Source of the DNA: a virus
Lineage: Duplodnaviria; Heunggongvirae; Uroviricota; Caudoviricetes
DNA length: 64,000 bases
IMG/VR virus record: IMGVR_UViG_3300014932_000131
Strand: one strand, 5' to 3'
Shown here in pieces: positions 1,656 to 62,866 of the stretch. The notes beneath the pieces were generated by a model. It was not told where the DNA came from. It was given only the letters and a program-made list of their open reading frames with translations, and searched no databases. The first letter of the stretch is position 1; each line of letters begins with the position of its first letter. The position numbers and the translations under genes are program-made.

Positions 1656-2477
1656 TTATGTACATGCTAAATCATAACCACTAGAATTACCATACAAATA
1701 TATTGTTTGATTTGCATATATTGCTGGAGGACTTACCCTTCCCGGGCAACTTGATGGTAATGCTGCATATGCTCCAACCCCAACAGAGGCTGCTGTAGTT
1801 CCATCGTTTATATCTACACTATCTCCTATTGCAAGAATTATTGTAGTTCCTGAGTTTACTGTTATTGAGCCAAATGATTGGTCTGAAGTTGTTACAGCAG
1901 GGGATGTAATTCTAGTATATGAAGAACCTCCATTAGTAGAATACCATACATATCTTCCACTATGAGTTGCATTTTGTTTTGCATGTATAGTTACTGAATA
2001 TGTTGTTGGTGCACAGGCAGATATACTATATATAGAAGCACCATCTAATAAAAAACTAGAGCCATTCATTGAAAAATAATTACCATCAGAAACTAAGAAA
2101 GTTCCACTTGTATCATAAAACAATGCAGTTCCATTCCCAAATGAACCATAATAATAAGCTGTAATGCTACCACCACTAGCATGAGCACATGCTTGTGAGC
2201 CATCTCCAGCAAACCCAGTTACTTCTACAGGATTAGCACCAGTATTTATAGTAGTATAATAAAATGTTGCACTACTAGGTACTATGCCAACTATATCTTG
2301 ATACATTACACATTGATTATTTGCATAACTTGCAAAAGCTCCTGTATTATTTACATAATAGTAAGTGTTAATAAAGCTTTTAGTAGCTATACGATTACCT
2401 ATTGGTGGGGTACTTTTAGTGGTAAGCCCCATAGTGGTTAAATCATCATATGTAACTAAATAATTATTACTTTTCAT
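1656..2477 (-). CDS. hypothetical Ser/Thr/Gly/Tyr-rich protein, probably tail-fibre associated
   Basis: 273-aa ORF overlapping the upstream fibre gene by 11 nt (operon packing); beta-rich composition typical of fibre or receptor-binding proteins. Confidence 0.5.
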   Translation of the reverse strand: MKSNNYLVTYDDLTTMGLTTKSTPPIGNRIATKSFINTYYYVNNTGAFASYANNQCVMYQDIVGIVPSSATFYYTTINTGANPVEVTGFAGDGSQACAHASGGSITAYYYGSFGNGTALFYDTSGTFLVSDGNYFSMNGSSFLLDGASIYSISACAPTTYSVTIHAKQNATHSGRYVWYSTNGGSSYTRITSPAVTTSDQSFGSITVNSGTTIILAIGDSVDINDGTTAASVGVGAYAALPSSCPGRVSPPAIYANQTIYLYGNSSGYDLACT

Positions 2478-19800: not shown

Positions 19801-22800
19801 ACCAAATACCTTTGCAAAGAATCTAGCAGTGATATCTTTAACTGAATCATTAGTTTCCTTCTCAGTCAATCCTTCAACAGCTCTATATTCAGTGAAGTCA
19901 TTTTTAGCAGACTCAGAAAGTGTAGCTTCTTTAAACTTACCTGTATCAATAGCTTTAAACAACTCCTCTTTTCTAGAAGGTTTATTTACAAACTGCTTAA
20001 AAAAGTTTATAATATCTCTAAAGAAGTTTAGTATTCTTTCACCTATATTTCTAGCAGGAAGTTTACCAAGTCTGAAATCAGCAAAGTCATCAGCTATTCT
20101 TTCCTTAGCTTGTTGATCTGTAGCTTCTTCATAGAATAACATCTTACCAGATTCTCTATCTTTAAACTTACCAGACTTAGCTTTAAATTCATCAAGGATA
20201 GCTTGTTGATTTTCATTAGATAGAAAACCTTTCCACACACCCTCAAATATCTCATGATACTCTGTACCTCTTTCACCACCTTTATAAAACTTAGCTACAC
20301 CATTTTCAAACACACCCCAAGCTTTCTCACCATCATGTGTAGTGATAATATTGCTTAAGATTTCAAAAGGAATATTAGGAACATTCTTAGCATGCCATTC
20401 TCTGAATAAATCAAGTTCTGCATCACTAATTTTATCTACATCTCCTTTACCAAGTACTCTATATTGAGAACCTTTAGGAGGTTTAGATTTACTAAAGTCA
20501 GCTTTATCTTCAACTACAGGAGCTGGTGCAGCTACAACTACAGGAGTTTCAGCTTTAGTTTGAATCTCAGCAGCAATCCTAAGCTTAAGGAAATCTTTAA
20601 CTAACTCAACATCACTCTTACTTGCATCAAATTTATCTACTGCTTTTAACGCATCAATAATTTGATTCATCTTACCCTTATCATTAGCTATATCTGTAAC
20701 TGTTTGATTATCAGATATCTTTATAAATGTATTATTATCAGCATCTTGTGTAGCTGTAAATAGTACAGGACCATTAGATAAATCATAAGTATTTTCTGTA
20801 GTACCATCTAATGTATATCCAGTAGGAGCAACTGGTGTTTCAACAACAGGAGCAGCTGCAGGAGGTAATTGTTCAGGAAGTTCCAATCCTTCTAGAACAG
20901 CATATCTTTGTTTAAAGTTATTTGGAGCAATATCAGTCTTCTCAGCTACATTTGTAGATAGAGGAGTTTCATTAATAGATCTAGTTGTTCCATCAGGATA
21001 AGTATCTGCTAATAAATAAGTTTGATAGTTTGTCCACTTAGAAGTGACTAACTCATCCCCAACCATATGTGGTTCATAGAATGGTTCATTAAACTTCTTA
21101 GTAAGTGTATCATTATTTATATTTTGATAAACACCTTTCAATTGGTCAACTATAGCTTTCTCATTATCAGCAATCTTAGTTAAATCATACTTCTCACTAC
21201 CTAACTCAATGTTCATTGTGTTAGTATTAATGAAGATTTGATTAGCACTATTAGCTCCTTTACTTCTCCAATATAATACATTCTGCAAATATGCAGAGTA
21301 TAACCTATTGATTCTGATTGGTTTACCAGCAGCTAATTGACTATTAACATCAGCAGAGATTTTCTTCAATACCTCAAATACACCTTGTGATTCTTTGTTT
21401 GTAAAAGTTCTACCTCTTACAACTTGTAATGTATCATTATATTGAATCAATGGATAACCAACAGGAACTTTAACTTGTTTTCCTTTATGAAATACAAGTC
21501 CTGTAGTGGATATCTTAACAAGTCCTTCTTGTGTAGATATAATATCACTAGGAACTAATGTCTTACCAATAGAGTTTCTTTGGTTTTGTACTGTTTGAGC
21601 AATACCATTAGACACAGAAAAGTCATACACATTATATCCAGGTGCATCAAATAACTCAGCTCTTTTAACTTTCCATCCAGCAGCTTTAGCTTCAGCTTCT
21701 GTTTTTTGGTCAGCTCTATATCTAGGAACAGGCTTACCATCTTTATCTGTAAACTTATAATATAATTCAGTGGTAGGCATAGTGTTAAACACCACTTTAT
21801 TCATATCCATAGTCTCACCCACCTTAGACACACGTTTACCTTGTTCATCTACAAAGTAAATATTATCACCATCTTGTTCCACATAAACAGCAACTACTAA
21901 ACCATTATCTACATCTGTAGCATCAGCCACTTCAGATAGGGGTTTACCATATTGCATTTCTGCTAGTCCTGCTAATCCAAGAGAGTTCTCTTGATTAGGA
22001 GTAACTAAAATAGCTTTCATTCTAGCTCTATTAGGAAATCCACCAACATTATTCAAGAATGAAATAGCACGTGCTTGATGAGGTTTAGGAACAAAGTCAC
22101 CATCTTCAGCTTGAGAAGTTGTTCCCTCAAACAACACTGAAGCATCTTTAAGCTTACCTTCAAATAGATTAACTATAACAGAAGAATCAACAGTGGCAAC
22201 ATTACCAGAGTTATGTTCAATATCTGCTTGATCTTTATTTATATCATCAGCAAACTTCTGTAGTTTCTCTTGATCAGTTTGAATCCTTTCATATCCTTCT
22301 AATTGACTAGGAATAATGTTTTGAGTCTTACCATTAATATCCTCCACCTTGATTGTACCATCAGCATTATTCTTAATCACTTTCACCTTACCTAAATCAG
22401 CAGATGTTTTATTTATATCATCAGCAGCTGCTTGAGCAGCTTCTTTTGTATCATGAAATGTAATATCTCCATTAGGAGCAGTCACTTGATATCTATCTTC
22501 ATCTTGAACTTTATCTACTTTAGCTTTAGCAGTTTCAGGTAATTGATATTCTCTTCCCTCTTGAGGAGTTTCTGTCTCACCACCTTTATTTGTAAAGTTG
22601 AAAGGACTATCTGGAATATCTGGTGTTTCATCTACTGCCAATGCTTCTTCTGCAGCAGCATCATAATTAGGACCATCTTGATAACCTATATAGTCTTTGA
22701 AATACTTTTCAAATCCTTCTTTATGTTCTTCAGTATTAGCTAGTTTTTTATATTTTTCTATCTCATTATCTAACTGCTTTTGTAACTGAATATTTTCATT

Positions 22801-25013: not shown

Positions 25014-27740
25014 TTATTTTTTATTTTTTACAGGAACCACTTGATTTAATAATGTAGCATCCATCAATTTTACAAATGTTTCTGCAGCATCTGTATTAAC
25101 AAAGTTACCATTAAAAGGAATAGGTGTAATTTTACCACTAGCATCTGTTTGATAAAACCAAACAGTTGGTCGTCCAGTACCATGATCTTTAATATCAGCA
25201 CCAACTATATCTGGTCTTCCTTGATCTGAAAAAGTATTACTAGGATACCAAGCTGTTTTATATGCATTAGGATTAGTTGGATCAGGATATTGAGAGTTAG
25301 TTGATCCATTCCCCCATTTCATTTGTTGTACTGTTTGAGATGGTGTAGGTTGTGCAGCAATATTTGAATTTATATAAGTTGCATCAACTTTTGCTATAGG
25401 AAGTATTTTTTGTAATTTACCAGATTCAAATAAACTTAATGTCCATGCTTCTCTAGGATCTGCTTCAGGATTATAATTAACTTTTAATTTAGTTTTATCT
25501 CTATCTGCTTCTGGTCCTGCAAGAGCAGCATCAAAAGGAGATGTATCCATAACACCATTATATTTACTTAATACACTTTTTATTCTTTGATTTGTAGATT
25601 TTATTTCAGGTTCTTTTGCATTTTCACCATAAACCTCAAATCCTTGAGTACCAGCAGTAATCATCTTATCTTTTAACACAGCTTCTTTTGCAGCTATGTT
25701 TTCTCTATGTGCACCTGAGGTTATCATTTTTGTAGCAGCATCTAATGCAGATCTAGTAGCAGGATCTATAGTAGCAGGAGTAATTCCACCATCTTCACTT
25801 CTATATCCATAGAACTGTTGTCTTATATGAGAAAAAGGCATTCCAAATTTAGCTTCTACTGCTTGTCTAGCATTATCAACTAATTTATTAGCATTTACAT
25901 CTGTGCCTGCAGGAAGATTTGCTCCAGTGGCAATATTTAATAAATCATTAGGAGTGATATTAAAAGTCTTTTTAGTAGGAGTACTAAATGGATTTAATGG
26001 TGAAAAGAAACCTTGTGGTTCTTCAATACTAACTGATCTATTACCACCCAACTTTGATTCAAATTGTTTTATATCACCACTAGTTGCTGCCACTCTAGGA
26101 TCTTTTTCTAACTCTTCTATTTTATGAGCATTCACTTGTACCTGTCTTTGAGCAGCATTAAGTGCAGGAAGTTGTTGTACAAGACCTGCATAATATGTAC
26201 TATTTTGATTTTTAGTAACTGCGTCTTTAGCTATGTCAACTTGTTGATCTAAGAATCTAGGATTATCTGCAACTTGTTTATTAAATTCTGCTATGATTTT
26301 TTTATCATCACCTTCTCCTTGACTATGATGTAATGCTAAATAATAGTTCTGAACAAAGTTTCTTTTAGTGTCATCATATAGATCACTATCAGTTTTTGTC
26401 TTAGTTAAGAATGTAGCATATGCAGGGAATTGTCCAGCAATTGGTTCTAGTTGAGGAAGAACAGGAGCATCTGAATATTCTTTTTCAAACTTCTTTTCAG
26501 CTAAATCTTGAGCTCTTCCAGCTATTTTTAAATGACCTTTAGCTACAGCTAAATTACCTTGAGAAATAGCAATCTCTGCTTGTTTAGCAGTTATATCAAA
26601 AGCTTGTTTGATTGTTTGTTGATGAGCTTCATAAGGAGCACTCTTCTCATAAGTTTCACTTATAGAAGGATTAAACATATTCAAATAGTTACTTGTAATC
26701 TTCTTTTGATATATAGAAGCTTTTAATGCATCTAAATTTCTATCACCATATTGTTTATAAATATCACGAAGATTAGTTGCTTCTTTATTTATATTATTTA
26801 TCTTATCATCCATTTTACTAGCTAAAAGCTCATATGATCCTTTCTCATCTGAGTTACTTGCAGAATTGGCTTTTTTAAGATAGTCCATTTTCTGTGCATT
26901 CAAACTAGTTAAAAGATCTTTGTTTGCTGCTAAAGCTTGATTGCCTAAATACCCTGCAAACTCTTCTGCATTATCATATCCTCTATATTCATACATTCCT
27001 CTAACAGCTAATGCTTTTTGTACGTCTGGTCTATCCATAGCAGTTTGAATAGCACTTATTACATTCTGAGGAAGTTTACCTTCTTTAATTGTCTTCACAG
27101 TGTATTCAGAAAGTTTTGGAACTCCATTTATATCCTTTTGAATAGTACCATCTGAATTTGTAACAAATATTTGTTCTGCTGTATACTTACCATTCTCAAC
27201 CATCTTTAACTGATCTGCTATAATCTTATCAGCATCTACAGTTTTTTCATACTGAGAATTAAGCATTATAGGATTTCCCTTTTCATCAGTTAACTTATCA
27301 TTTGAAAGATAAGCATTACGTTGTTTAGTATATAACCATTCATCTTGAGAAGCCAATTTACCTTCTTTTCTATCAGCTTCCATTTGAGCTAGATTCTTTT
27401 TATCCAAACTAGCAGAGTATGTAGCAGCTTTAATTATAGGATCTTTAACAATATTTGTAGCCATACCCCCCACAGAGTTAACTAATTGCTGATTAGAGAA
27501 ATCTCCAGCAGCTACACTCTTAAGATTGTTACCTAATTCATTAAGTTTAGATTGCATATATTCTTTATCCTGAGGACGCAATACATCCATTCCAGCTACA
27601 TTATCAATGTAGCCTTGAACTTTTTGCACACCCTGGTTATATTGAGCCTGCTTTTGCATGCCAACTTGCACCATAGCTTCTGTGGGAAGCTGTTGGATGT
27701 AGGGGTTAAAGGTTGATATTTGATCAGTAAATGAAGCCAT
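25014..27740 (-). CDS. Large hypothetical virion (internal/cargo?) protein, 908 aa
   Basis: Complete ORF, 3-nt spacing to the giant ORF, Q/N/K-rich coiled regions. Confidence 0.6.
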   Translation of the reverse strand: MASFTDQISTFNPYIQQLPTEAMVQVGMQKQAQYNQGVQKVQGYIDNVAGMDVLRPQDKEYMQSKLNELGNNLKSVAAGDFSNQQLVNSVGGMATNIVKDPIIKAATYSASLDKKNLAQMEADRKEGKLASQDEWLYTKQRNAYLSNDKLTDEKGNPIMLNSQYEKTVDADKIIADQLKMVENGKYTAEQIFVTNSDGTIQKDINGVPKLSEYTVKTIKEGKLPQNVISAIQTAMDRPDVQKALAVRGMYEYRGYDNAEEFAGYLGNQALAANKDLLTSLNAQKMDYLKKANSASNSDEKGSYELLASKMDDKINNINKEATNLRDIYKQYGDRNLDALKASIYQKKITSNYLNMFNPSISETYEKSAPYEAHQQTIKQAFDITAKQAEIAISQGNLAVAKGHLKIAGRAQDLAEKKFEKEYSDAPVLPQLEPIAGQFPAYATFLTKTKTDSDLYDDTKRNFVQNYYLALHHSQGEGDDKKIIAEFNKQVADNPRFLDQQVDIAKDAVTKNQNSTYYAGLVQQLPALNAAQRQVQVNAHKIEELEKDPRVAATSGDIKQFESKLGGNRSVSIEEPQGFFSPLNPFSTPTKKTFNITPNDLLNIATGANLPAGTDVNANKLVDNARQAVEAKFGMPFSHIRQQFYGYRSEDGGITPATIDPATRSALDAATKMITSGAHRENIAAKEAVLKDKMITAGTQGFEVYGENAKEPEIKSTNQRIKSVLSKYNGVMDTSPFDAALAGPEADRDKTKLKVNYNPEADPREAWTLSLFESGKLQKILPIAKVDATYINSNIAAQPTPSQTVQQMKWGNGSTNSQYPDPTNPNAYKTAWYPSNTFSDQGRPDIVGADIKDHGTGRPTVWFYQTDASGKITPIPFNGNFVNTDAAETFVKLMDATLLNQVVPVKNKK

Positions 27741-27826
27741 AATAATAGAATTAGCAAATGTAATTTAAAATATAATATATACCAAGAGCAATAATAGATT
27801 TTGTTAATTTGGTATAACTGAATTAG

Positions 27827-30778
27827 TTAGAGAGATTTCATAGCTTTTACAATAGCACCATTTCTAGCTTTAAGTTTAGCACCACTCTTAGCAGCTTTTT
27901 CTTTCTTCATATCTTCTACATTGCCTGCAGCATCATATAAGAATTTAAATCCTGCAGGAGCTTGTTGTCTCCCAGAGTTAGAATTACCAGTACCAGCTAA
28001 GTTGAATTGATAAGGATCATTAACATTGTAAGCTACACCACTTGGAGAGAATCTATAATTGTATAAGTTCTCTTTGATAGCAAGATCACGATTCTCCATT
28101 TGATTTTGTAATTTCTTAGCAGCAAGAGATTTAGCAATTTCAATAGCTTGTTGTTTGGTCTTAGAGCTAGCTTCAGATTGTCTAGTATATTGATTATCAA
28201 GGATTTGTAAATTTTTCAACTGAGCATCATTTAATGTAGCTCTATTAGCTGCATATGTTTGATCAGCTGCTCCTTGATTCATTCTAAACTGTTCTCCTAG
28301 CACTCTATTCTTAGCATCAATAGCATTAGCTTGTATTTGAGCTTGAGCAGCAGGATTATTTCCCATAGCTCTTATAGCAGCTCTAGTTTGACTATCTATT
28401 GTATTAATTTGATCTTGTAAAGAGATTCTAGAAGGTTGGTCTTTTAACATTGGTTGGAATGTCTGAGCTTTAACAGCTTCAGGTTGATTCAATGCTAATG
28501 CCATCATCTCAGGATATGTCTGACTAGGATCTAAAGGTCTTTGATTTGTAGGTCTTAAGAATGGCATAGCTGCAGATAATGCAGCTTGACTTAATGGAGA
28601 ATTAGCTCCTTTTCCAATAACTTTACCTACTTTCTTTGTTATGTCCCATGCTTTTTGACCAAATCCAGGACCATTAGCTGGTTGATTAGCAGATGTACTA
28701 TCAGAAGGAATACCACCAGCATAGTCATTAAATATGTCAGATGCACTAGAGGATGTAGGAGTAAAGAATGTAGGTTGATCTATACCAACAGCTTGAGCAC
28801 CAATACCATTTCCTGATACAGGTTGAATACCATCTTCTGCTTTAATAATTTTAGCACCTTTCTTAGCTTGTTTGATTTTACCCTTAGCTAAAGAATCAGA
28901 ATCTAAGCCATGTTCTTCTGCTGTATCAAGAATAGCATTTTGTTTACCAGCAAGGTCTTTTAATTTCATAGAGTTTTGTTGTAATTTCATATCTGCTCCA
29001 GTTAATGTAGCCATAGCACTATTCATTTTAAATTGGTCATATGGTGTATGTCCTTGATATTGACTTGCATTTGCTGTAGCTTTATCTTTAATTTTGGTTT
29101 GTTTATTATTGCTATTAGCTATATCCTTAGCTAACACTTTGTACTTTTTACCACTTTCATCTTCTATCATATTACCAAATACAACCAAGCTATTTTGATT
29201 ACCACCATCTTGCATTTTAACCATTGGTTCATTTCTTTCCACCTCTACAGGATTCTTACCATATGTAATACCAATACCTGTTCTTCCTTTACCATCTGAT
29301 TCATCATGAGAGTTTCCTTTAGGCATAATAATTTCACTAGCATCATAAGGATTTTGAGATAGGGTTTCTAACCCACCCCCCCAATGAGATTGTAACTCAC
29401 CACCTAAAGCCATATCAGGTCTTCCTGTAAACATAGCTTCTGCACTAGGAGGTGTATATTCTTTTAAATGACCACCAGCTCTTAATGAATCCATTCCTTG
29501 ATGAGCAAAGCTATGTACTTGAGATACATTCATATCACCAAAATGTGTAATCACTTGTGGCTGCCAGTCATGACTCATCCATCCACCATCTTCCATATTT
29601 GCTGAATTTTGTGCATGAAGAGCATTAGCTCCAGATGCAAACGCAGCTCTTTGTGTATTTTGTTGTGTAGCATCTTGATATCTATGAAGTTTATTCATAT
29701 CATCAGCACCACCTAATAAATTACCAGCAACATTACCTAAAAGCTTTCCTGCCATTCCTCCAAGAGGTCCAAAGAATGCTGTACCTATAGCTTGACCTGC
29801 AGCACCACCTATTTCAGCTTGACCTGAATCTTGGAAGTAATCACCAAACTCTGCTTTATGAATACCACCACCATATGCAAACTGTTTAGGATTGCTATCA
29901 TTTAATGGCTCATATCCAAGATCACCATATAAATCTCCTGTAGGAGCATATGTATTTTGTACCTGTGTTGGATTACCACCTATCATTGTACCGTTAGCTG
30001 CACTTAAAAAGTTTGTTCCTGATCCTTGAGGATTACCTAATTGTCCAGGTTGTACCATTTGATCTTCAGGTCTAACATATTTACGTTTCATTTGTTCAGG
30101 TCTTGATTCAGCAGCAGATGCTGTTACTTGACTAAGTTGAGCAGATTGATTAGCTTTTTTAATATCATCATTTTGTTGACCTATCTTTTGGAATCCAGCT
30201 ATAATTTGTGGAGCAGCACCTATTGCTCCCATTGCAGCACCAGCATAATCAAACCCACCAGCACCTGGAGCTTTATCAGCAAACCCTAAAGCATCTGTTT
30301 GTGTTTTACTAACTGTACCACTTGCACTATCAATCATTCCTGTTGATGGATTAGAAGTAGCTCCACCACCTAACCAACCAACTTGAGCTTTCTTTATCTT
30401 CTTACCATTCTTACCTATAGCATCCATAATCTGTGGAGCCATCTTTGCAACTTGTCCAATCATATCTCCAAGACCACCTCCAGAAGCTGGAGCTTGTTGT
30501 TGCTTTTGTTGAGCAGCAGTGTATGCTTGTGCACTCATACCAGCATTCTTAGCACCAGCATTAGTCATTAAATCACTAAAGTTAATTCCATTTTGTGCTA
30601 TAGGAGGATTACCAAAATCAGTCAGTTGATGTAACTGAGTGTTTACCATTTTTCTTCCCATTTCAGCTTTTTTAAATGCTTTACCATGAGTTTTCATAAA
30701 TGCTTCCTCTGATGGGTACTTACGATAGAATTCCTTTTCAGACTTTACTTTAGCAATTTTTAATATTTGATCTTTCAT
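27827..30778 (-). CDS. Large Gly/Ala/Gln-rich hypothetical virion protein, 983 aa (tape-measure or ejected-protein-like composition)
   Basis: Long G/A/Q-rich low-complexity segments with glycine-zipper-like GxxxG runs. His-rich patch MSHDW..VHSFAHQG. Confidence 0.55.
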   Translation of the reverse strand: MKDQILKIAKVKSEKEFYRKYPSEEAFMKTHGKAFKKAEMGRKMVNTQLHQLTDFGNPPIAQNGINFSDLMTNAGAKNAGMSAQAYTAAQQKQQQAPASGGGLGDMIGQVAKMAPQIMDAIGKNGKKIKKAQVGWLGGGATSNPSTGMIDSASGTVSKTQTDALGFADKAPGAGGFDYAGAAMGAIGAAPQIIAGFQKIGQQNDDIKKANQSAQLSQVTASAAESRPEQMKRKYVRPEDQMVQPGQLGNPQGSGTNFLSAANGTMIGGNPTQVQNTYAPTGDLYGDLGYEPLNDSNPKQFAYGGGIHKAEFGDYFQDSGQAEIGGAAGQAIGTAFFGPLGGMAGKLLGNVAGNLLGGADDMNKLHRYQDATQQNTQRAAFASGANALHAQNSANMEDGGWMSHDWQPQVITHFGDMNVSQVHSFAHQGMDSLRAGGHLKEYTPPSAEAMFTGRPDMALGGELQSHWGGGLETLSQNPYDASEIIMPKGNSHDESDGKGRTGIGITYGKNPVEVERNEPMVKMQDGGNQNSLVVFGNMIEDESGKKYKVLAKDIANSNNKQTKIKDKATANASQYQGHTPYDQFKMNSAMATLTGADMKLQQNSMKLKDLAGKQNAILDTAEEHGLDSDSLAKGKIKQAKKGAKIIKAEDGIQPVSGNGIGAQAVGIDQPTFFTPTSSSASDIFNDYAGGIPSDSTSANQPANGPGFGQKAWDITKKVGKVIGKGANSPLSQAALSAAMPFLRPTNQRPLDPSQTYPEMMALALNQPEAVKAQTFQPMLKDQPSRISLQDQINTIDSQTRAAIRAMGNNPAAQAQIQANAIDAKNRVLGEQFRMNQGAADQTYAANRATLNDAQLKNLQILDNQYTRQSEASSKTKQQAIEIAKSLAAKKLQNQMENRDLAIKENLYNYRFSPSGVAYNVNDPYQFNLAGTGNSNSGRQQAPAGFKFLYDAAGNVEDMKKEKAAKSGAKLKARNGAIVKAMKSL

Positions 30779-30798
30779 ATCGAACTTTTATATATGGT

Positions 30799-33285
30799 TT
30801 ATTTATATTTATTTAGCCAACCACCATTTTCATCTTTAGATAATCTAGGTTCCATTCCTTTAGGAATATCTCTTGAAGCATTTGGATTACCTAAAGGACT
30901 ATTTACATATGCTTCAGGATTGAAGTTTGGATTTCTTTTCATGAATCCTGGTTCTTCCCACCAATTAATAGGTCCTCTTGTAACTTGTTGTGTACTAGTT
31001 GGTTTAGGAACTTCTTTATATCCTTTTAACCAATTTTCTTTATATAACTTAACATTAGGATTAGATATAGATATAGGTTCTTTTGAATAAACAACTGGAT
31101 CATCAAACATAGGTCCTGTATAAGCTGCTACATTCTCATCTACAAATAAGTCTTTATTTCCTTTCACTTCTGTCATGTAAGGTCCTTCATATCCTGCTCT
31201 TCCAGTAGCATCTCTAAGTCTTGTATCTAAAGGATATCCTTTGTTATAGTATGCTTCTGTATGACCTGATCCTATTGGAGGTCTAACTACACCACTCTCT
31301 AAAGCATCTGCATATCCTTCTTTACCTATCATTCTATAATAAGCTTCTGGGTTTGCTTTAAATGCATAAGGATTTAACTTATAAGCATTTTTTAAAGCTG
31401 TTTCTTCTGTAAGATATTTACCTGCTGTTTCTGCTCCTGCTTTAATTAATTTACCTCCACCAATTCCAGCCTCTATAGCTAACATAGGTTCAACAAGATT
31501 GTTCATAGCATTAGCTGCATATTTAGAACTTGCTGCTCTATTTAATAATGCAGAATTTTCTTCTCTTCTTTGTGCTTTCTCTTTTTCTAATCTTTCAGCT
31601 TCTCCCTTCTTAGGAGTATATTGAGACATTGTAGGTCTATTAGCATTTCTTTTAGCTAAGAACTCTTCAGCTTGTTCTTTTAACTTTTTACTAATATTCT
31701 CACCATCCTGAGCCATTGGGTATTCTGTAACCTTCTTACCTTCAAACTTATAGTGTTGATCAGGATACATCATTTGTTGATGTCCTGTATCAGATACACC
31801 AAGTACAGGATAATCAACTCCTTCCATTGTAATATTATTAGAATTGATTCTTGTTATCTCACCTGGGTGAGCCCATTGACCCATGTCATCTTCAATTACA
31901 GAACCATTTTTACTAATACTCTTAGGAGTGAAGTCTAGTCCATTCTGATAGAAACTCATTTCCTTGCCATTCTGAGCACTTGCTTTTGTCTTCTTAGTAT
32001 ACTTACCATTAGCAGGAGCTGAGCCAGCTGTGCGTGCGTATGTGAATCCTACAGCACCTGGCATACTTCCACCCATTTGGTATTTAGGATTATTATAAGC
32101 TTTACCTTTGTCAATACTATTTAATACACCTGTGCCTTTCTTATATCCATTATTTGCATACCATTGAGCATCTTGTTCATTTTTAAAATTAATATACTCT
32201 CCTGTATGTCTAGCATAATCAACAGCTGTTTTTCTATCAACTACTGGTCCTGGCTTATCTAAGTATTGTAAATTTCCAGGTTGAGTGTAGACATCTAATG
32301 GATTAAATGTTTTAGGATTTACCACTGTAGGAAAAACCATATTATCAGCATCAGCCATATAGTGAGTAGACATTTCACCACTTGGAGTTTGTGATAAATG
32401 TATTGGAGCAGGAGGATTATTTTTAGCATAATATCTTTGTACAAAATCCTTATCCATATTAGCATTATTAACACTATCTACCCATGCTTTATTATGTAAA
32501 CTACCACCATTCTGAAACTGTCCTCCCCATGCTGGAGACTTCCAGTTAGATGCACCATAACCAAGTCCTACAAATCCAGGACCTGTAGAAGCTTTAGCAT
32601 CATTATAGTTACTCTGTTTACCATAGTTATCATGAATCTTTTCTAATACCATTCCACCTTGCTCATATTTATTTAACCAGCCCCCATTCTCTTTCTTAGG
32701 CTCATCCTTGAGGTCTGAGAACTTTTTGGTAGTTTTATCTGTCCATTGTCCACCTGTTGATTCTAGAGCTTTAAATGCTCTTGTCACCTTACTGTGTGTA
32801 ATTATATCATCACTAGCAGGAGCTTTCTTAACCATATCATAAGCTTGCTCCATTCTTTGAGCAAAGTTACTAAATGGTTCTCCACCAGGGACAACAGTGT
32901 TAGGATTCTTTACCCATTGTTTCTCTTTGAAACTTCCTTCAGGAGCTCCATCATATTCACCTATATCCCATGTTCTAAGTAATGGAGATGTGGTATGTTG
33001 CATACCAGCTTCATTAGCCATTAAATCTGCTGTTTCTTTAGCTCTCTGTATATCACTAGATATAACAGCTTTCTTTCCTTGTTGAGCAGCTTGTTTACCT
33101 ATTTGCTTTGCATACTTAATTCCTTTTTGAGTTAAGTCAGTTGGATTTACACCATTCTCTAACTTATCTGCTGTAGCACTATCTTCTCCATGCTCATACA
33201 CTTCTGTACCATTCAACTTGATTGGAGGAACTTTAGGACCATTAATAGGTCCACCATTGTCATATTTTTTTAACCACTTAACCAT
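30799..33285 (-). CDS. 828-aa virion protein with N-terminal histidine-phosphatase (phosphoglycerate-mutase-like) domain and three NGGWLNKY motifs
   Basis: LTQKGIKYAKQIGKQAAQQGKKAVISSDIQRAKETADLMA aligns with GpmB-type LTAKGEQQA...HIISSDLGRTRRTAEIIA. Downstream PGGEPF..QRMEQAYD and DIITHSKVTRAF match the PGM core. Canonical RHG is EHGE here. GGWLNKY-like motif at the N-terminus, near aa 200 and at the extreme C-terminus. Confidence 0.65.
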   Translation of the reverse strand: MVKWLKKYDNGGPINGPKVPPIKLNGTEVYEHGEDSATADKLENGVNPTDLTQKGIKYAKQIGKQAAQQGKKAVISSDIQRAKETADLMANEAGMQHTTSPLLRTWDIGEYDGAPEGSFKEKQWVKNPNTVVPGGEPFSNFAQRMEQAYDMVKKAPASDDIITHSKVTRAFKALESTGGQWTDKTTKKFSDLKDEPKKENGGWLNKYEQGGMVLEKIHDNYGKQSNYNDAKASTGPGFVGLGYGASNWKSPAWGGQFQNGGSLHNKAWVDSVNNANMDKDFVQRYYAKNNPPAPIHLSQTPSGEMSTHYMADADNMVFPTVVNPKTFNPLDVYTQPGNLQYLDKPGPVVDRKTAVDYARHTGEYINFKNEQDAQWYANNGYKKGTGVLNSIDKGKAYNNPKYQMGGSMPGAVGFTYARTAGSAPANGKYTKKTKASAQNGKEMSFYQNGLDFTPKSISKNGSVIEDDMGQWAHPGEITRINSNNITMEGVDYPVLGVSDTGHQQMMYPDQHYKFEGKKVTEYPMAQDGENISKKLKEQAEEFLAKRNANRPTMSQYTPKKGEAERLEKEKAQRREENSALLNRAASSKYAANAMNNLVEPMLAIEAGIGGGKLIKAGAETAGKYLTEETALKNAYKLNPYAFKANPEAYYRMIGKEGYADALESGVVRPPIGSGHTEAYYNKGYPLDTRLRDATGRAGYEGPYMTEVKGNKDLFVDENVAAYTGPMFDDPVVYSKEPISISNPNVKLYKENWLKGYKEVPKPTSTQQVTRGPINWWEEPGFMKRNPNFNPEAYVNSPLGNPNASRDIPKGMEPRLSKDENGGWLNKYK

Positions 33286-34148
33286 TACTTAAATGAAATT
33301 TCAGCAGGTGTAACAATGAATCCACTAATTAAATGCAAATCAGATTTGTCATCTAGTATATGTCTGACCTTCAAGAACTTAGCTCTTAAAGGTTCTTTTT
33401 TATATGAACGTTTACCATAATCCATGTTAGCTTGATTTAACACTTTATCAATAGATAAAGACTCACAACTGGTTAGGAACAAAGGTACGGTTTTATCTTT
33501 AACTAATCCCCAGAAAGTATTATATTGATAGAAACCATCTGACTTAGCATACATGATTGTTTTACTATCAGTGTTGTATATAGGATAGCTCATATATGAT
33601 TGTAAGTTACGCAATGGTTTAGGAACCAAGTTTAACAAACCAGAACATTGTTGACCATTATATAGAATAGCTTTATTAAAATAGCCATTAATTTCTATAG
33701 CTGAGTTATCATTATATGCTCCATTAGTACTAGGAAGATACTTAATAGCTCTGGTATAGTCTTTTACATTCTGTAATATTTCATCATATGATTGATATGC
33801 AAATGGATATTCTAGAATGAACGGTTCTATATTATCATAATATGTGTTATATATAGTTGAAGAATATAGATGTTTCCATATAGTGGCTGTATTAGTAGGC
33901 ACAAATTCAATGGCAGCTATCTCTTCTTGTGTAAGTGCTCCTATAGGTAATTCCAATACTGTATGACATTTACCAGTGGATTGTAATATAATTGTAGTAA
34001 CACTATCAGAAACACTCACTGTATATCCATCAATAAGATCTTCCTTAGATATATCTACACCTAAGACATCACCTAGATTATCCAAAATCGTGAATGGTCC
34101 TGTTCTGTTTCCAGCTGCTGTTAATTTTACTATTACTACTTTAGACAT
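33285..34148 (-). CDS. Hypothetical structural protein (287 aa) sharing an N-terminal ~70-aa domain with ORF 42737..43315
   Basis: MSKVVIVKLTAAGNRTGPFTILDNLG... versus MTVTITLTLAGSDTGPFNLYSDENG... (LTxAGxxTGPF motif plus downstream G-YT..V.D..T.I.....G.C pattern). Confidence 0.55.
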   Translation of the reverse strand: MSKVVIVKLTAAGNRTGPFTILDNLGDVLGVDISKEDLIDGYTVSVSDSVTTIILQSTGKCHTVLELPIGALTQEEIAAIEFVPTNTATIWKHLYSSTIYNTYYDNIEPFILEYPFAYQSYDEILQNVKDYTRAIKYLPSTNGAYNDNSAIEINGYFNKAILYNGQQCSGLLNLVPKPLRNLQSYMSYPIYNTDSKTIMYAKSDGFYQYNTFWGLVKDKTVPLFLTSCESLSIDKVLNQANMDYGKRSYKKEPLRAKFLKVRHILDDKSDLHLISGFIVTPAEISFK

Positions 34149-34159
34149 TTATTATTATT

Positions 34160-37100
34160 TTAAGAAACATAAACTGCATTACCACTCAAATTACAATTTA
34201 ATATAACTGTTGTAGTGGTTGTAGTGGTTGGATTAGGAAGCTCTTGTACAGCTATTGCATGTAAATCACATCCCTCATTTAAACCAGAATAGAATATATT
34301 GTTTTCTGCTATATAGAAGTTAGGTATATAACTATGAAAGCTTACCCAACTTTTTGTATTTACATTAAATGATAAAGTCCAAGACTTATTACAGAAGTAT
34401 TTAGGATCTGTAAGATTTACATATTGTCTAAGCACTGTTGAACCATAAGTCTTATTTATATAAAACTTCTTAAGATCACTATCATATTTAATAACTCCTA
34501 CATAAGCTAATTGAGGAATGTAATCTAACTTACTGATAATCACTCTATCATACTTACTATCATATACACCATGTACACCTATACCATTAAAGTGGTTATC
34601 TACATCTGCATTAGCATAATATCTAAGTATCTCAAATGGTAAGTGATCTGTAATAAATCTATTCACACCAGAACCAAATCCAGTGATATCTTCAGGAACA
34701 TATTTACCATACATACTTAATGATATCAAAAATATCTGACCTCTTTTAGCATCTATTGTAATTTGTCCTTGAGGAATCTTTAATAAGAACTTATTCTGTG
34801 TACCTACATATCCAAGATTTGTTTCAGCAAAATCTACTGGAGGATTACCAAACAATGAAGGATTACCCAAATAAGCAGCTTGAGGATTACTTGTATTCAT
34901 TGTTAACAATGTATTGTATAACAATGACTTATTCTCAAATCTAGCTAGAATAGATTTATTCTGAATACCATCTAAAGAAACTAACTTACCAAAGTTTTCT
35001 GGAAAGTCAAAGAAAGAAATAGGTGCATAGTTTAACCAGCTATTAACTCTTGTACTAGGATTAGATGATTGTTGTTCAGAATATATAACTCTAAATGGAT
35101 AGTATGTATAACAATTATTAGGTTTCCAATCTACAGGCAAATGAGAGAAATAGTTTTCTTTATTTTGCTTAGAGAACGTAACATTATATGTATATGTATT
35201 ATCAAAAGCAATAGGAACAAAAGATTGTTGTAACCAGTTGTCAGGAATACCAGAGCTCACATGAGGATAGAAGTCTCCTTCTTGATTGTTAAATGCTTGA
35301 CGTAAATCAGTATTGATAGAAGATTCTACATAGAAATATGGTATACCATATGCAAATAAATAGAACTTACCATCATAATAAGCATTTGTTGTACTTACAG
35401 TTACAGTTCCAGTCAAATCTTTAGTTGTACTAGTTGTAGTTGTAGTTGTACTTCCAATTGCTGGATTATTAGGACAGTCAAAGTAATGAGCTTTAACTGA
35501 TATAATATTTTTAAGATTTGTCTTTCCTGCTTGATAATCACTTAAAATAGATCTAGAAGAATGCCAGTATTGTGGATAAGCCACATTACCTATTTCATCA
35601 TAATAAACATCACTGTCATCAGGAGCTCCCACCCTATTATCAATAAAGAAAGGAAGTTTGGTTTTTAATGCAAACTTACCAATAAATGTATCTCCACCAA
35701 ATATAGTTTCATCTGTACCTACTGTTGTAATAAGCTTTTGAAATCCTGTATCAATTGTATTATAAGAATACATTTGTCCCCATTGGTCAGCAATTATATT
35801 CTTGATAGATCCATAATAGGATACCACCTTAATATCTTTTTGATCTTCTGGAGTAGCACAATTACCATTTTCTGATATAGTAAATCTTGATGTATCAGAA
35901 ATCTCAGGTATTCCATTATTAAGAAGATTAGGTGTTTGATTTACATATGGAAGAGGAGTAGTTCCTGCTGTCTTTAAATAAACAGAAGATTCTCTTTGCC
36001 AGTTGTTTATTGTAAGATCATCACCAACTGATTCTACACCAGGAATAAGATATTGATAAATATCAAGTTCTCTTTGTTTTATTCCTAAGCCATTATCTAC
36101 AGCTACTCCATAATCATAACTAGCTATAGAGTTAAATGAATATGCATAGTTTCTTCTAGTAATACCATTTATATAAAGTTGTAAGTATGCTTGAAAAGCT
36201 GTAAACATTGCTGTTGCATCAAGTGTACCTGTAGTCATAGCAATATTATAGCTTGAGTTCAAAGCATCTACTTGTGCACTTTCACTTACTAGTTTATATT
36301 GAGCATTCTTTTTAACTTGTACAAAATGAGCTTTACCAGCACCAAAAATTGCATTCTCTATCTTAAGAACATTACCTAATGTAGGTTGTCCAAAAGAAGT
36401 TTCTGGTGAATTAAATACATATCTATATTTAGAAGAATTATCAGAAAACCCAGTTAAATTAGATGGATAACATATTGTATTCTTATTATTGTTATTTATT
36501 GTTACACTAGCTTTGTTTGATCCTCCTACTACTTTAGGTAATGTAACAGAGTTTACATTTATTGGATTACCTGGATAAACATAAATATTAGTAAGTTGTT
36601 GTGTAAGAGCATCTGTATAATTAAACTCCGTGTAAGTAATATCATAACAGGTTAATACATAAGATGTACCGCTTATATTTGTAATAGTAGCTATTCCTGT
36701 TGTTACAACAGGAAGTGTTACAGAACATAAATTAAATATTTCATTACTAGTAAAAGTTCTCACTGCTATTTCGCCTGTATTACAATTAGTATATTGAACT
36801 GAACCAGCAATACTTGCTGATATACTATAAGTAACACATTGTGAGTTATAAGCATTATTTTGTGCTAATAAGAATGGATCAGAACTTAAATCATTATAAG
36901 GATAATTAGGGTAGTAGTAAGAAGTTCCTTCTCTTGAATATGTACCAACATTTCTTAATATACCTTTTGCTACAACAGATTGATTAGTGCTTCTATCTCC
37001 TCTAACTACCTTGAATCCAACAATTTGATCTTTCTCATATTGTGTAAGAGAAGATTGACGTATTAATTCAAAAACTTGTTCTGAGTTTATTTTAACACCA

Positions 37101-38695
37101 ATTGGAAATACAGCATCATTTTGCATCACTGGTACTATTTGATTACCAGAATATACAATTGTTGGTGTTTCAAAAATAGGACTTACAGATACATCTGGAA
37201 ACTTATGATGTCTAATAGGAGTATCAGCAAGATCTCCCCATACATCTGTATTACATGGATAAAGTTCTGTAGATTCCCAATAAGCAAATTCACCATATTG
37301 ATAAGGTCCTTTGTAAGTTTTCTTATCTACAGCAGCTGCATATTGAGGAGAATAGTCTGTTAGAGCTCCTGTATTGTATATTTTCCAATATGGAGCAACT
37401 GTTCCTGATCCAATATAGTCAGCATTACTAGCTTTTGTTACATCTGGATGAGCTTCATTACCATTCTTTTTTCTACCAGGAATATGAAAACCATCTGTTT
37501 GTTTACCATTTCTAAGTAAGAAAACAATCTCAAATGGATATATTTCATCTCTAAGATAGCCTCTTAGATTAGCAGCATTTAATGAATCAGCATAGTTTTC
37601 TGTAGAAGGGATTCTCCAAGTTTCCCATGCAAGTTCAATTTGATTAGCAATCTTTTGATAATTCACTCTATCTATAGAAGTAAGATTATCCCATACTAAT
37701 AAATCTTGAACTGATGTTATATCTTGAGCAATATCATAATAAGGAAACTTCTCAATTATATCTGCAGTGGAAAGTGTAATAGCTGTTACATCTTGACCTG
37801 AATAAACTATTTGTTTAGTAGCACCATCAATAAAATATGTTCCTACCAATGAAACAGCACTAGCACCATTTATAGTTTTAATAACAGCCAAGTTATAATA
37901 TTCAAAATACCCTGTAAGATCTATATTACTAACATCTATTGCAATTGATTTACCCACAGGATAGTTAAAATCATTTGTGGTAAGTTGAGGATTAGCAATA
38001 GGTGTAGGATTGGTTACTGAATAGTAAGAAGTGTAAGCATCTCCTAGAGCACTACAGTATTGAATGGCAAACTGATATGTTCCAGCTATTAAAGCTCCAC
38101 CATTAAGAATACTATTAATTGATAGTTGTGGAATATTAAAATTAGGCTGAATACTTAATTTATTACAATCAATTACAGGAAGTGTTTCAGGATTACAAAT
38201 AACTCCATCTGGATAAATTGTAGTAAGTGGAGGATTATTTAAATCTATAAATCTTCTAGGATTAAGACCATCTGTCCAATATACCTCTGTTGTACAGTTT
38301 GTAATCTTATGTACAGCTTTATGAATTGGATATTCTATATTAAAATTAAGACAATCTCCATTAATATATTGATGATAAACACAATCATTATTAACCATAT
38401 ATCCTATTTCAGAACCTCCTGTTAAAGAATTTGCTAAGAAGAATATATGTTTGCTTTGTTCTTGAATAAAGTGTGTACCAATAAGTTGATAACCATCAGG
38501 AAATTGTAGGCAAAAGGTATTTCCCTGCTCATTCTGATAGTTAACAGAATTAGCATCAAAGTTTTCCAATGCAGCATTTAAGGCATAAGTAAGCTTACCT
38601 TTCTCAACCTGATTTACGGTTGAATCCATATTTAAACCAATTCTACCAAGATTATACTCTTGTCTAAGTGGTCCTTGTTGTTGTTCTTCAGCCAT
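34160..38695 (-). CDS. Large hypothetical structural protein, 1511 aa (tail hub/muzzle-like size class)
   Basis: Complete 4.5-kb ORF; beta-rich Asn/Tyr/Thr-rich composition; poly-Thr tracts near both ends. Confidence 0.6.
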   Translation of the reverse strand: MAEEQQQGPLRQEYNLGRIGLNMDSTVNQVEKGKLTYALNAALENFDANSVNYQNEQGNTFCLQFPDGYQLIGTHFIQEQSKHIFFLANSLTGGSEIGYMVNNDCVYHQYINGDCLNFNIEYPIHKAVHKITNCTTEVYWTDGLNPRRFIDLNNPPLTTIYPDGVICNPETLPVIDCNKLSIQPNFNIPQLSINSILNGGALIAGTYQFAIQYCSALGDAYTSYYSVTNPTPIANPQLTTNDFNYPVGKSIAIDVSNIDLTGYFEYYNLAVIKTINGASAVSLVGTYFIDGATKQIVYSGQDVTAITLSTADIIEKFPYYDIAQDITSVQDLLVWDNLTSIDRVNYQKIANQIELAWETWRIPSTENYADSLNAANLRGYLRDEIYPFEIVFLLRNGKQTDGFHIPGRKKNGNEAHPDVTKASNADYIGSGTVAPYWKIYNTGALTDYSPQYAAAVDKKTYKGPYQYGEFAYWESTELYPCNTDVWGDLADTPIRHHKFPDVSVSPIFETPTIVYSGNQIVPVMQNDAVFPIGVKINSEQVFELIRQSSLTQYEKDQIVGFKVVRGDRSTNQSVVAKGILRNVGTYSREGTSYYYPNYPYNDLSSDPFLLAQNNAYNSQCVTYSISASIAGSVQYTNCNTGEIAVRTFTSNEIFNLCSVTLPVVTTGIATITNISGTSYVLTCYDITYTEFNYTDALTQQLTNIYVYPGNPINVNSVTLPKVVGGSNKASVTINNNNKNTICYPSNLTGFSDNSSKYRYVFNSPETSFGQPTLGNVLKIENAIFGAGKAHFVQVKKNAQYKLVSESAQVDALNSSYNIAMTTGTLDATAMFTAFQAYLQLYINGITRRNYAYSFNSIASYDYGVAVDNGLGIKQRELDIYQYLIPGVESVGDDLTINNWQRESSVYLKTAGTTPLPYVNQTPNLLNNGIPEISDTSRFTISENGNCATPEDQKDIKVVSYYGSIKNIIADQWGQMYSYNTIDTGFQKLITTVGTDETIFGGDTFIGKFALKTKLPFFIDNRVGAPDDSDVYYDEIGNVAYPQYWHSSRSILSDYQAGKTNLKNIISVKAHYFDCPNNPAIGSTTTTTTSTTKDLTGTVTVSTTNAYYDGKFYLFAYGIPYFYVESSINTDLRQAFNNQEGDFYPHVSSGIPDNWLQQSFVPIAFDNTYTYNVTFSKQNKENYFSHLPVDWKPNNCYTYYPFRVIYSEQQSSNPSTRVNSWLNYAPISFFDFPENFGKLVSLDGIQNKSILARFENKSLLYNTLLTMNTSNPQAAYLGNPSLFGNPPVDFAETNLGYVGTQNKFLLKIPQGQITIDAKRGQIFLISLSMYGKYVPEDITGFGSGVNRFITDHLPFEILRYYANADVDNHFNGIGVHGVYDSKYDRVIISKLDYIPQLAYVGVIKYDSDLKKFYINKTYGSTVLRQYVNLTDPKYFCNKSWTLSFNVNTKSWVSFHSYIPNFYIAENNIFYSGLNEGCDLHAIAVQELPNPTTTTTTTVILNCNLSGNAVYVS

Positions 38696-61362: not shown

Positions 61363-61580
61363 ATATAATTAGAACAAAGGTAGGTGTATTCCATTGATCT
61401 TCAAATAACTATTTTAATTATTCATAAACTTATTGCTATATTATCCTCTATTTTTCTCATTGGTGTATTTAGAAGAACCTAAGCCCTATTCTCCTTCCCC
61501 ACCCACACACCCCAAAGGTAATGGTGTCTTTAGGATATAAACAAATTTATTTTTAAAATGTGGATAAACTCTCGAATGAC

Positions 61581-61730
61581 AGGATATTATAATATAGGCA
61601 CAACAACATATTATAATTATACCCCACAAGGTATAATGTGTCATAAAAGGGACAATATTATACCCTATTGGGTGTTATAAGGGACATTATATGTCAATGG
61701 ATATAACATGGCTGGTATGTCGTACATTAT
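61581..61730. repeat. Array of five or more (C/G)ATATTATA / TATAAT-like motifs at ~24-45 bp spacing, including an imperfect direct repeat AAGGGACA(A)TATTATA
   Basis: ggatattataatata, acatattataattata, aagggacaatattata, aagggacattatatg, cattatacg, within a 1.08-kb ORF-free divergent intergenic region. Confidence 0.5.
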
Positions 61731-62116: not shown

Positions 62117-62126
62117 ATGGGCCCAT
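62117..62126. promoter_or_regulatory. Perfect 10-bp palindrome ATGGGCCCAT flanked by repeated ATGGGTGCA and CAATTAACA motifs (candidate operator/iteron cluster)
   Basis: atgggtgca at 62043 and 62072; caattaaca at 62050 and 62130; palindrome at 62117. Confidence 0.4.
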
Positions 62127-62184
62127 TGGACAATTAACATTAAACACATCTAACTTATTGGTTGTTAAGCAATTAAGTCCATAG

Positions 62185-62861: not shown

Positions 62862-62866
62862 TTAAT

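Follow-up and report, generated by a model that had tools for sequence, protein, structure and literature searches.

A predicted muzzle, cargo, and virion RNA polymerase module in a divergent, uncultured crAss-like phage

Why would a tailed phage commit ~28.7 kb to six very large proteins? The question is raised by IMGVR_UViG_3300014932_000131, a member of the Caudoviricetes in IMG/VR, of which a stretch of 64,000 nucleotides (nt), the window, was analyzed here. A preliminary description of this DNA had singled out open reading frames (ORFs) of 908, 3707, 1639, 828, 983, and 1511 amino acids (aa), 9576 aa in sum, and proposed that they are proteins injected with the DNA, several of them enzymes. 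We conclude that the block is very probably the standard tail-tip muzzle, injected cargo, and virion RNA polymerase (RNAP) module of a divergent, uncultured crAss-like phage, a reading that homology, gene order, motifs, folds, and modularity support. The cargo proposal was therefore essentially right, but for a system that is already known.

Identity of the large proteins

All six ORFs exist, on the minus strand and at exactly the lengths first given, within a run of tightly packed, co-directional genes. The block in fact occupies 8969-38695 and, once the ring proteins are counted in, reaches 41304. The interval originally assigned to it, 25014-38695, covers four of the six ORFs (908, 983, 828, and 1511 aa) and an additional ORF of 287 aa, whereas the 3707- and 1639-aa genes fall outside, at 8969-25011. 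Its placement between tail-fibre modules and downstream of the head genes was accurate: upstream are the genes for terminase, portal, and major capsid protein, and collagen-like fibre genes stand on either side. A comparison with crAss-like gene orders and a remote-homology annotation of each protein, both suggested at the outset, were carried out; the latter assigned the muzzle, a protein like cargo protein 1 (C1), the 908-aa family, the RNAP, a nuclease, and a His_Phos domain. The window shows the canonical crassvirus order of ring proteins R2/R1, muzzle (MUZ), cargo proteins, virion RNAP block, and tail fibres, and its block is collinear with those of phiCrAss001, phi14:2, cr108_1, and phi17:2. 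The finer order of MUZ, first post-muzzle protein (slot-1), C1-like, 908-like, and giant protein is found unchanged in phi17:2 and in five metagenomic relatives.

The rings and muzzle anchor this order. Their genes are adjacent and co-directional, in the order R2..R1-MUZ, and all three proteins score above the curated cutoffs of Pfam families defined from the cryo-EM atlas of phiCrAss001. The 1511-aa protein also matches phrog_37948 (E 2.7e-105) and muzzle-sized proteins of Leptolyngbya phage Lbo-JY46 (E 3.9e-183) and Cellulophaga phage phi17:2 (E 2.9e-114), and an R1 homolog adjoins the Lbo-JY46 muzzle (E 1.4e-21); a PDB sequence search with the muzzle gave nothing significant. We assign the 1511-aa protein as the predicted muzzle, a structural tail-tip gatekeeper and not cargo. 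The neighboring 287-aa ORF matches the ends of unsplit muzzles (Lbo-JY46 1457-1653 of 1654 residues, metagenomic contig L013 1635-1839 of 1844, phi17:2 2096-2260 of 2289), so that the window encodes its muzzle in two parts (1511 + 287 aa), a split common to four relatives. By the same homology the small protein would be tail structure too, not cargo.

The head genes place the lineage. Terminase TerL, portal, and major capsid protein match crass-type PHROGs (phrog_6681, E 3e-84; phrog_6547, E 4e-98; phrog_11589, E 2e-31), and tblastn matches to TerL come from crass-like phages only, the nearest being unclassified relatives: identity is 39% to Lbo-JY46, 32% to phi17:2/phi4:1, 28% to the epsilon crAss-like csAssE-Sib, and ~26% to canonical Crassvirales. 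The muzzle ranks relatives as TerL does. On these sequences we place the phage near Lbo-JY46, Cellulophaga phages phi17:2/phi4:1, and the epsilon crAss-like group, calling it crAss-like by homology. When 25014-38695 was compared by megablast with 50,697 phage records, no nucleotide match was found, and close relatives with the same block are metagenomic contigs only (three from IMG/VR and several ENA/Logan contigs of at most ~116 kb).

The largest protein of the block, at 3707 aa, is by all its matches a predicted fusion of a gp67-like part, a zincin-like domain, and a gp66-type virion RNAP. It aligns with phi14:2 gp66 (PDB 6VR4) at E 8.3e-20 in two segments (residues 2549-2905 and 2952-3197 with gp66 1038-1390 and 1473-1700), bringing GSDFDIDK into register, and iterated searching extends the homology to gp66 1021-2018. 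Homology thus takes in the catalytic core (connector, double-psi beta-barrel (DPBB) with DFDID, and bridge helix/trigger loop region), and the DFDxD motif has Ile at position 4, where the crass RNAP hallmark demands Ile or Val. Each Asp of the gp66 DFDID is essential for RNA synthesis, and gp66 itself is packaged in virions, transcribes early genes, and is rifampicin-resistant (Drobysheva et al.). The DFDID that had been listed as an enzyme-like triad is accordingly to be read as the catalytic site of an early-gene virion RNAP rather than of an unknown enzyme. Farther out, the whole chain is collinear with cr108_1 gp054 + gp053 (2967 + 792 aa) and with phiCrAss001 gp50; residues 1807-2415 are collinear with gp054, and no direct alignment to the N-terminal half of gp66, with its second DPBB, was obtained. 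The N-terminal profile matches phi14:2 g067 (E 7.3e-17), which is encoded directly upstream of gp66 and whose annotation cites tandem mass spectrometry (MS/MS) of virions. We had considered this part a novel 1500-aa N-terminal extension of the RNAP, as it gave no tblastn match, and rejected the idea on its collinearity with cr108_1 gp054 and homology to g067. The zincin-like region (1531-1675) aligns with cr108_1 gp054 1474-1614 (E 2e-10) and has further homologs in phiCrAss001 gp47 and phi14:2 g065; it was absent from the preliminary description. Fusion of RNAP-block neighbors into one giant polypeptide has been described before, as have introns and inteins in crass RNAP genes. The cr108_1 polymerase gene (locus L006) is broken exactly at DFDxD: a 290-nt gap (20409-20700) separates the end of gp054, at the residue equivalent to D2890, from gp053, which picks up again at 2898; this interruption fits the reported introns and inteins, and the window's gene is uninterrupted.

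The 1639-aa protein is predicted to be RNAP-associated and to carry a putative PD-(D/E)xK nuclease, as found in large transcription-associated proteins that are a documented hallmark of crassviruses. Its collinear counterpart in cr108_1 is gp052 (E 2.1e-23), which follows the polymerase there, and iterated searching links it to phiCrAss001 gp49. Residues ~390-515 hold a full RecB/YqaJ-type signature (E396, D469, D483-W-K485, and Q508-M-T-Q-Y512), all of it conserved in gp052, and phrog_298, an exonuclease family, matches at E 2.7e-6. Apparent ankyrin repeats in this protein were rejected: the stretch LILEAGYGVNAKD mimics a consensus repeat, the score was summed over designed DARPin repeats, and the per-domain E-values are insignificant.

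The 983-aa protein required structure prediction and profile comparison. Sequence searches return metagenomic relatives only (1102 cluster representatives), with no match in Pfam, PHROGs, or PDB sequences. Its AlphaFold2 (AF2) model, built with 63 homologs, consists of very long helices, disordered linkers, and a small, confident beta-domain at 463-533. Foldseek with this model found nothing significant in the PDB, but in BFVD it retrieved proteins containing the "Cargo protein 1 compact domain" (E 7.8e-6 to 2.3e-2), among them the first post-muzzle gene product of cr108_1, a "putative transmembrane protein" of crAss002, and slot-equivalent structural proteins of phi4:1 and phi14:2. Profile alignment (hhalign) matches residues 332-372 to the predicted transmembrane (TM) segment of C1, phiCrAss001 gp45 133-176 (80.6%, E 1.3e-5; this Gly-rich segment is low-complexity, weak on its own, and detected by profile comparison only), and residues 454-593 to the C1 compact domain over 108 columns (59% probability, E 9.2e-5), with GGSHEEN / GIxIG / VEVExGE in common. 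Because the two matches are collinear and Foldseek points the same way, we assign the protein, with moderate confidence, as a remote C1 homolog. Whether the 983-aa family might be a second modular enzyme carrier was also considered, and is unsupported: in six of its long members no Pfam domain reached significance.

The 908-aa protein appears from its family to be a conserved virion component of fixed size, not an enzyme carrier. The ~400 residues at its N-terminus have matches in phi17:2 gp040 (974 aa, E 5.8e-8), annotated as virion structural by similarity to phi4:1, and in an 845-aa protein of Lbo-JY46 (E 4.3e-14), both encoded at the same relative position. The family comprises at least 2016 homologs, mostly ~870-950 aa long and lacking any Pfam domain, and its uniform length and want of domains led us to reject a modular carrier here as well. 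A PDB sequence search gave nothing significant.

The protein behind the muzzle

The 828-aa protein is the only unusual part of the block: on its homologs, we take it to be a lineage-specific modular carrier that occupies the first slot after the muzzle and whose enzyme module can be exchanged. The module in this case is a histidine phosphatase fold. His_Phos_1 (PF00300) matches residues 32-171 at E 4.5e-20 (72.6 bits against a cutoff of 21.7), the AF2 model gives residues 20-195 a predicted local distance difference test score (pLDDT) of 83-94, and Foldseek returns histidine phosphatases only (CobC, Rv2419c, and PGAM5; E ~2e-7, target TM-score 0.5-0.57). All three enzyme-like signatures of the preliminary description are therefore present, one of them in a phosphatase without the arginine of the RHG motif. 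The "unusual enzymatic repertoire" it had described holds for this module only, as RNAP and PD-(D/E)xK nuclease are usual for crassviruses.

Modularity emerges from the family, which has at least 1601 metagenomic members (E <= 1e-3). Only residues ~200-260 and ~400-650, the carrier core, are generally conserved. Among the best 120 of these members, His_Phos_1 occurs in 22, the ADP-ribosyltransferase (ART) domain ART-PolyVal in two, and YkuD and Amidase_2 in one each; the other 94 have no recognized domain. Members with ART and YkuD share the window's slot (Ring-1, muzzle, a 288-aa protein, the 828-family protein, proteins of ~1100 and ~950-1000 aa, and the giant). In a close relative (contig L003) the phosphatase module is gone and the remainder of the protein is kept, and in another (P0123) a His_Phos domain sits independently on a gp67-like carrier. 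The motif GGWLxKY occurs at residue 4, at the phosphatase/core junction (201), and at the extreme C-terminus (821), and most family members repeat it 2-4 times, at module junctions. GGW(L/V) is also present at residues 398-400 of the 983-aa protein and at 156 and 427-430 of phiCrAss001 gp45 (locus L007), and may be a docking element common to crassvirus cargo proteins. A module of ~65 aa (GGIHI.PSKRGTFTA...NYS...KKANFA.NA.KW...GG) recurs in C1 proteins of the canonical type and at the C-terminal end of a family member with YkuD (duplicated at residues 848-983 of P0087, encoded at 10001-13003 of contig L013; gp45 370-438 in L007; gp056 296-366 in L006), and is lacking in the window's 828-aa protein. 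Identification of that protein as C1 was rejected, since hhalign gave probabilities of 1.7% and 0.7% and a short GGWL motif is the sole shared feature, as was identification as cargo protein 2 (C2), to which profile and iterated searches found no detectable homology. Nor is there detectable homology between the 828- and 983-aa proteins, and Kyte-Doolittle scans of the 828-, 983-, and 908-aa proteins revealed no strong TM helix.

Homology with phiCrAss001 and phi14:2 suggests that the block is expressed late. R2, R1, the 1511-aa muzzle, and its 287-aa piece would build the tail barrel and distal gate, and the 828-, 983-, 908-, 3707-, and 1639-aa proteins would be packed inside capsid and tail barrel. 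At infection, opening of the muzzle would let the cargo out before the DNA, in a partly unfolded state. The C1 homolog, with its Gly-rich membrane-type segment and portal-binding-type compact domain, might help to form a trans-envelope conduit; the polymerase, with its DFDID Mg2+ site, and its nuclease-bearing partner would refold in the cytoplasm and transcribe early genes without host RNAP. The 828-aa protein would deliver a variable payload, here the EHGE histidine phosphatase fold and in relatives an ADP-ribosyltransferase, peptidoglycan amidase, or YkuD. Packaging, ejection and its order, catalytic activities, and substrates we infer from phiCrAss001, whose cargo was detected by virion mass spectrometry and for which cryo-EM and an ejection model are available (Bayfield et al. 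2023, PMC10172136), and from phi14:2. Injection with the DNA would accordingly extend to the window's cargo by homology and collinearity, but not to the structural 1511-aa muzzle.

Several observations weigh against this account. The homologs from which packaging is read are only ~20-40% identical. The C1 assignment is moderate, with hhalign probabilities of 59-81% and Foldseek TM-scores of 0.1-0.26, and the underlying model has low overall confidence (mean pLDDT 63.4); the 828-aa model fares worse, at 51.9 overall with ~59% of residues below 50. The 828-aa protein has no detectable C1 or C2 homology, and neither it nor the 983-aa protein has a tblastn match above threshold in phi14:2, phi17:2, or phiCrAss001, so that their virion location is argued from position and the remote C1 link. 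PDDEXK_1, the top Pfam match of the 1639-aa protein, falls below its curated cutoff (17 against 22 bits, E 0.006). The zincin-like domain has HExxE instead of HExxH, as it does in the nearest relative (contig L005), and a search for HExxH came up empty in every block protein because of this substitution. In the phosphatase module the RHG arginine is replaced by Glu31 (EHGE), with the nucleophile His32 present, and the canonical general-acid Glu aligns to Thr (LRTWDIGEYDG) in 21 of 21 modules, in a gapped region where a nearby Asp or Glu could substitute. Without either residue, the module may be inactive or perform a different chemistry.

These substitutions invite the reading that the module is a catalytically dead unit for folding, packing, or binding, within a protein that is a structural component of ejection or the conduit. 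Both substitutions recur throughout the 21 complete modules, the close relative L003 dispenses with the module while keeping the rest, and the many top family members without a recognized enzyme domain fit as well. Yet His32, Arg81 (QRAKET), and His164 (ITHSK) are kept in every module, strictly conserved down to ~55% identity, and the fold is predicted confidently; the slot carries bona fide effector-type domains in relatives, a second carrier family has also gained His_Phos, with canonical RHGE nearby, and the fixation of EHGE suggests a selected variant and not decay. A dead module seems to us possible, though on the unlikely side. We are similarly tentative about the more ambitious proposal that slot-1 is a dedicated effector-delivery carrier, in which a conserved core (GGWL-delimited segments and a small beta-domain) would be packed in tail or capsid and ejected first with swappable enzymatic warheads, GGW(L/V) would dock to portal or tail barrel as in C1, and the phosphatase would be an undescribed injected effector with a phospho-substrate in the envelope or, early on, in the cytoplasm. 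The sequence fits either target: slot homologs carry cell-wall enzymes, which would suit the envelope, and ART, which would suit the cytoplasm.

The placement of GGWLxKY, at both ends of the 828-aa protein, at its phosphatase/core junction, and repeatedly at module junctions in the family, could also mark proteolytic sites, making of the protein a small polyprotein whose phosphatase is freed by cuts at module boundaries, with the zincin-like domain in the 3707-aa protein as one conceivable protease; such processing of crassvirus giant proteins has been proposed before. We think this improbable. The local zincin motif is HExxE, and in phiCrAss001 the C1 GGWL (427-430) lies uncut inside the ordered, portal-bound compact domain (425-552, cryo-EM); its position at the start of that domain favors a docking or structural role over a cleavage site. 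An external, structural place in the tail (tube, tape-measure, or fibre-like) for the large proteins, instead of one as internal cargo to be ejected, is in our view very unlikely. It does apply to the 1511-aa muzzle and 287-aa piece; the fixed length of the 908-aa family is typical of structural rulers, and GenBank calls the homologs only "structural protein." However, the 3707-aa protein is an RNAP homolog whose orthologs are injected enzymes, the 983-aa protein contains the compact domain by which C1 binds the portal within the capsid, and the models are helical and disordered, as in phiCrAss001 cargo; signatures of fibre, collagen, or beta-helix are absent, in contrast to the fibre genes on either side. 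The cargo reading of the block therefore remains the one we prefer.

Features and neighboring genes

The features of the block and its surroundings are collected in Table 1.

Table 1. Predicted features of the block and its neighbors, in window coordinates
Feature	Residues (aa)	Position (nt)	Strand	Basis or note
Tail-fibre, collagen-like, 1665 aa		2467-7464	-	flanks block
Tail-fibre, collagen-like, 450 aa		7473-8825	-	flanks block
1639-aa RNAP-associated protein (cr108_1 gp052 / phiCrAss001 gp49 family)		8969-13888	-	collinearity
RecB-like PD-(D/E)xK domain, putative	~413-525	12314-12652	-	motifs, phrog_298
3707-aa fusion protein		13888-25011	-	gp67-like + zincin-like + gp66-type RNAP
Catalytic DFDID	2890-2894	16330-16344	-	aligned to gp66 1361-DFDID-1365
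gp66-type virion RNAP	~1800-3506	14494-19614	-	PDB 6VR4
Zincin-like domain	1531-1675	19987-20421	-	motif H1586-E-I-F-E1590
gp67-like N-terminal part	1-~1500	20512-25011	-	profile match to phi14:2 g067
908-aa fixed-length virion protein (phi17:2 gp040 / phi4:1 gp39 family)		25014-27740	-	phrog_32131, "virion structural protein"
983-aa remote C1 (phiCrAss001 gp45) homolog		27827-30778	-	Foldseek, hhalign, AF2
Compact (portal-binding-type) beta-domain	~454-540	29159-29419	-	AF2, hhalign
Gly-rich TM-like segment	332-372	29663-29785	-	hhalign
828-aa modular cargo-slot protein		30799-33285	-	His_Phos module + carrier core
Histidine phosphatase module	20-195	32701-33228	-	motif E31-H32-G33-E34, R81, H164
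287-aa protein, split-off muzzle C-terminus		33285-34148	-	matches last ~200 aa of unsplit muzzles
Muzzle (MUZ), 1511 aa		34160-38695	-	PF25731 crAss_MUZ, E 1.5e-31, 110 bits (cutoff 27)
Tail ring protein 1 (R1), 323 aa		38705-39676	-	PF24228 CrAss_Ring_1, E 4.5e-7, 30 bits (cutoff 27)
Tail ring protein 2 (R2), 238 aa		40588-41304	-	PF25702 CrAss_Ring_2, E 4.9e-15, 56 bits (cutoff 27)
SbcD/Mre11-like metallophosphoesterase, 416 aa		41304-42554	-	phrog_704, "DNA repair exonuclease," E 4.6e-44
BNR/Asp-box (sortilin-type propeller) protein, 512 aa		43325-44863	-	flanks block
Tail-fibre, collagen-like, 330 aa		44865-45857	-	flanks block

The collagen-like fibres and the BNR/Asp-box protein are probably the receptor-binding and depolymerase apparatus. 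The 416-aa metallophosphoesterase, which has no Pfam match at 1e-3, is embedded in the tail-barrel genes directly upstream of R2; its phi14:2 equivalent is the calcineurin-like phosphoesterase g075, and L003 has a 416-aa ORF at the same position. It may be the second "phosphatase" that the preliminary description had in mind. The muzzle/cargo operon appears to gain and lose mobile endonucleases: the closest relative, L005, has a 205-aa GIY-YIG/NUMOD homing-endonuclease ORF (6653-7270) between its C1-like and 908-aa genes, where the window has an 86-nt spacer (27741-27826), and contig L013 has a GIY-YIG ORF between R2 and R1. At ~61400-64000 the GC skew changes sign, and ORFs turn to the plus strand near 62 kb, beyond a string of small ORFs that lies upstream of TerL; this switch is probably the boundary of the structural (late) module with another module. 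Sigma-70 promoters and terminators at 24-41 kb were as numerous as in shuffled sequence and hence uninformative, tandem repeats amounted to three trivial arrays, and no tRNA genes were found across the window.

Comparison with known systems

T7 gp14/gp15/gp16, to which the block had first been likened, and the virion RNAP of N4 are analogous in function only, through ejection of internal proteins before the DNA or along with it and through a packaged RNAP for early transcription. Searches of PHROGs, Pfam, PDB sequences, and Foldseek returned no T7-like match, and we found no sequence or fold relationship to either system; the crass virion RNAP is a two-barrel (DPBB) enzyme related to QDE-1, while that of N4 is a T7-like single-subunit RNAP.

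Polyvalent proteins (Iyer et al. 2017, PMC5512222) and the T4 ADP-ribosyltransferase Alt bear a likeness to the 828-aa protein, as virion-associated carriers with interchangeable modules, and ART-PolyVal itself occurs in its homologs. Polyvalent proteins combine 2-15 modules, whereas the 828-aa protein has one, and its carrier core is a separate family tied to the crassvirus post-muzzle slot. A polyvalent protein is defined by at least two effector or enzymatic domains in a virion- or conjugation-associated chain; the family members with ART-PolyVal, YkuD, or Amidase_2 carry one such module each, and the 3707-aa protein (zincin-like + RNAP) formally would qualify. That survey mentions no histidine phosphatase module, and a link of such a phosphatase to crassvirus cargo was found neither there nor in the other literature searched.

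Among crassviruses proper, phiCrAss001 (PMC10172136) has in gp43-gp50 the same order of rings, muzzle (gp44), C1 (gp45), C2 (gp46), and RNAP block (gp47/gp49/gp50). Ring and muzzle Pfam families match, the 983-aa protein has the Gly-rich segment and compact domain of C1, the 3707-aa protein matches the catalytic gp50 and shares its zincin-like region with gp47, and the 1639-aa protein matches gp49. Identity is only ~20-26%, however, and the window differs in its split muzzle, in an extra modular 828-aa protein between muzzle and C1, in an extra 908-aa protein, in the fusion of gp47-like and gp50-like parts in one chain, and in having all genes co-directional where gp49/gp50 are inverted. An iterated search from gp46 reached cr108_1 gp055 only, and no protein of the window or its relatives. 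In phi14:2 (g065-g072; PDB 6VR4, Drobysheva et al.) the DFDID is identical, the Ile at position 4 included, homology covers gp66 ~1024-1700, and a g067-like part precedes the polymerase, with annotation of the neighbors again citing MS/MS of virions. There g067 and g066 are separate genes and HExxH lies on g065, downstream of the RNAP; in the window the two are fused and the HExxE zincin-like domain lies upstream of the RNAP within the fusion.

Nearest in TerL and muzzle are phi17:2/phi4:1 (Lightbulbvirus, gp039-gp043) and Lbo-JY46, with the order MUZ, slot-1, C1-like (895 aa), 908-like (974 aa), and giant, annotated as virion structural. They differ in being 30-40% identical at best and in slot-1 proteins without the phosphatase. 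Searches by phmmer/jackhmmer and tblastn detected no crass-type DFDID polymerase in the blocks of phi17:2 or Lbo-JY46 (locus L008, 12355-37809), in contrast to the easily recognized one of the window. Post-muzzle proteins there are equally large (2748 and 1552 aa in Lbo-JY46, 1957 aa in phi17:2), and may be extremely diverged polymerases; the epsilon-group virion RNAP is reportedly detectable only by HHpred.

What the window contributes, then, is a divergent member of the known muzzle/cargo/virion RNAP module, with lesser variations (split muzzle, gp67-zincin-RNAP fusion with HExxE, no C2, extra 908-aa protein) and one possibly new accessory, the 828-aa slot-1 carrier. The active-site variant of its phosphatase is a testable candidate for a new type of effector, and its family of at least 1601 metagenomic members amounts to a natural catalog of enzymes possibly injected by crAss-like phages before the DNA. 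In all, ~30 kb of "hypothetical" genes gain annotation, and the cargo/virion RNAP module is re-identified in an uncultured lineage ~25-40% identical to deposited phages. The gene map of the phiCrAss001 "structural atlas" (rings, muzzle, C1, and RNAP block) can by these assignments be extended to the phi17:2 / Lbo-JY46 / epsilon-like side, where C1 and the DFDID polymerase appear to have been retained.

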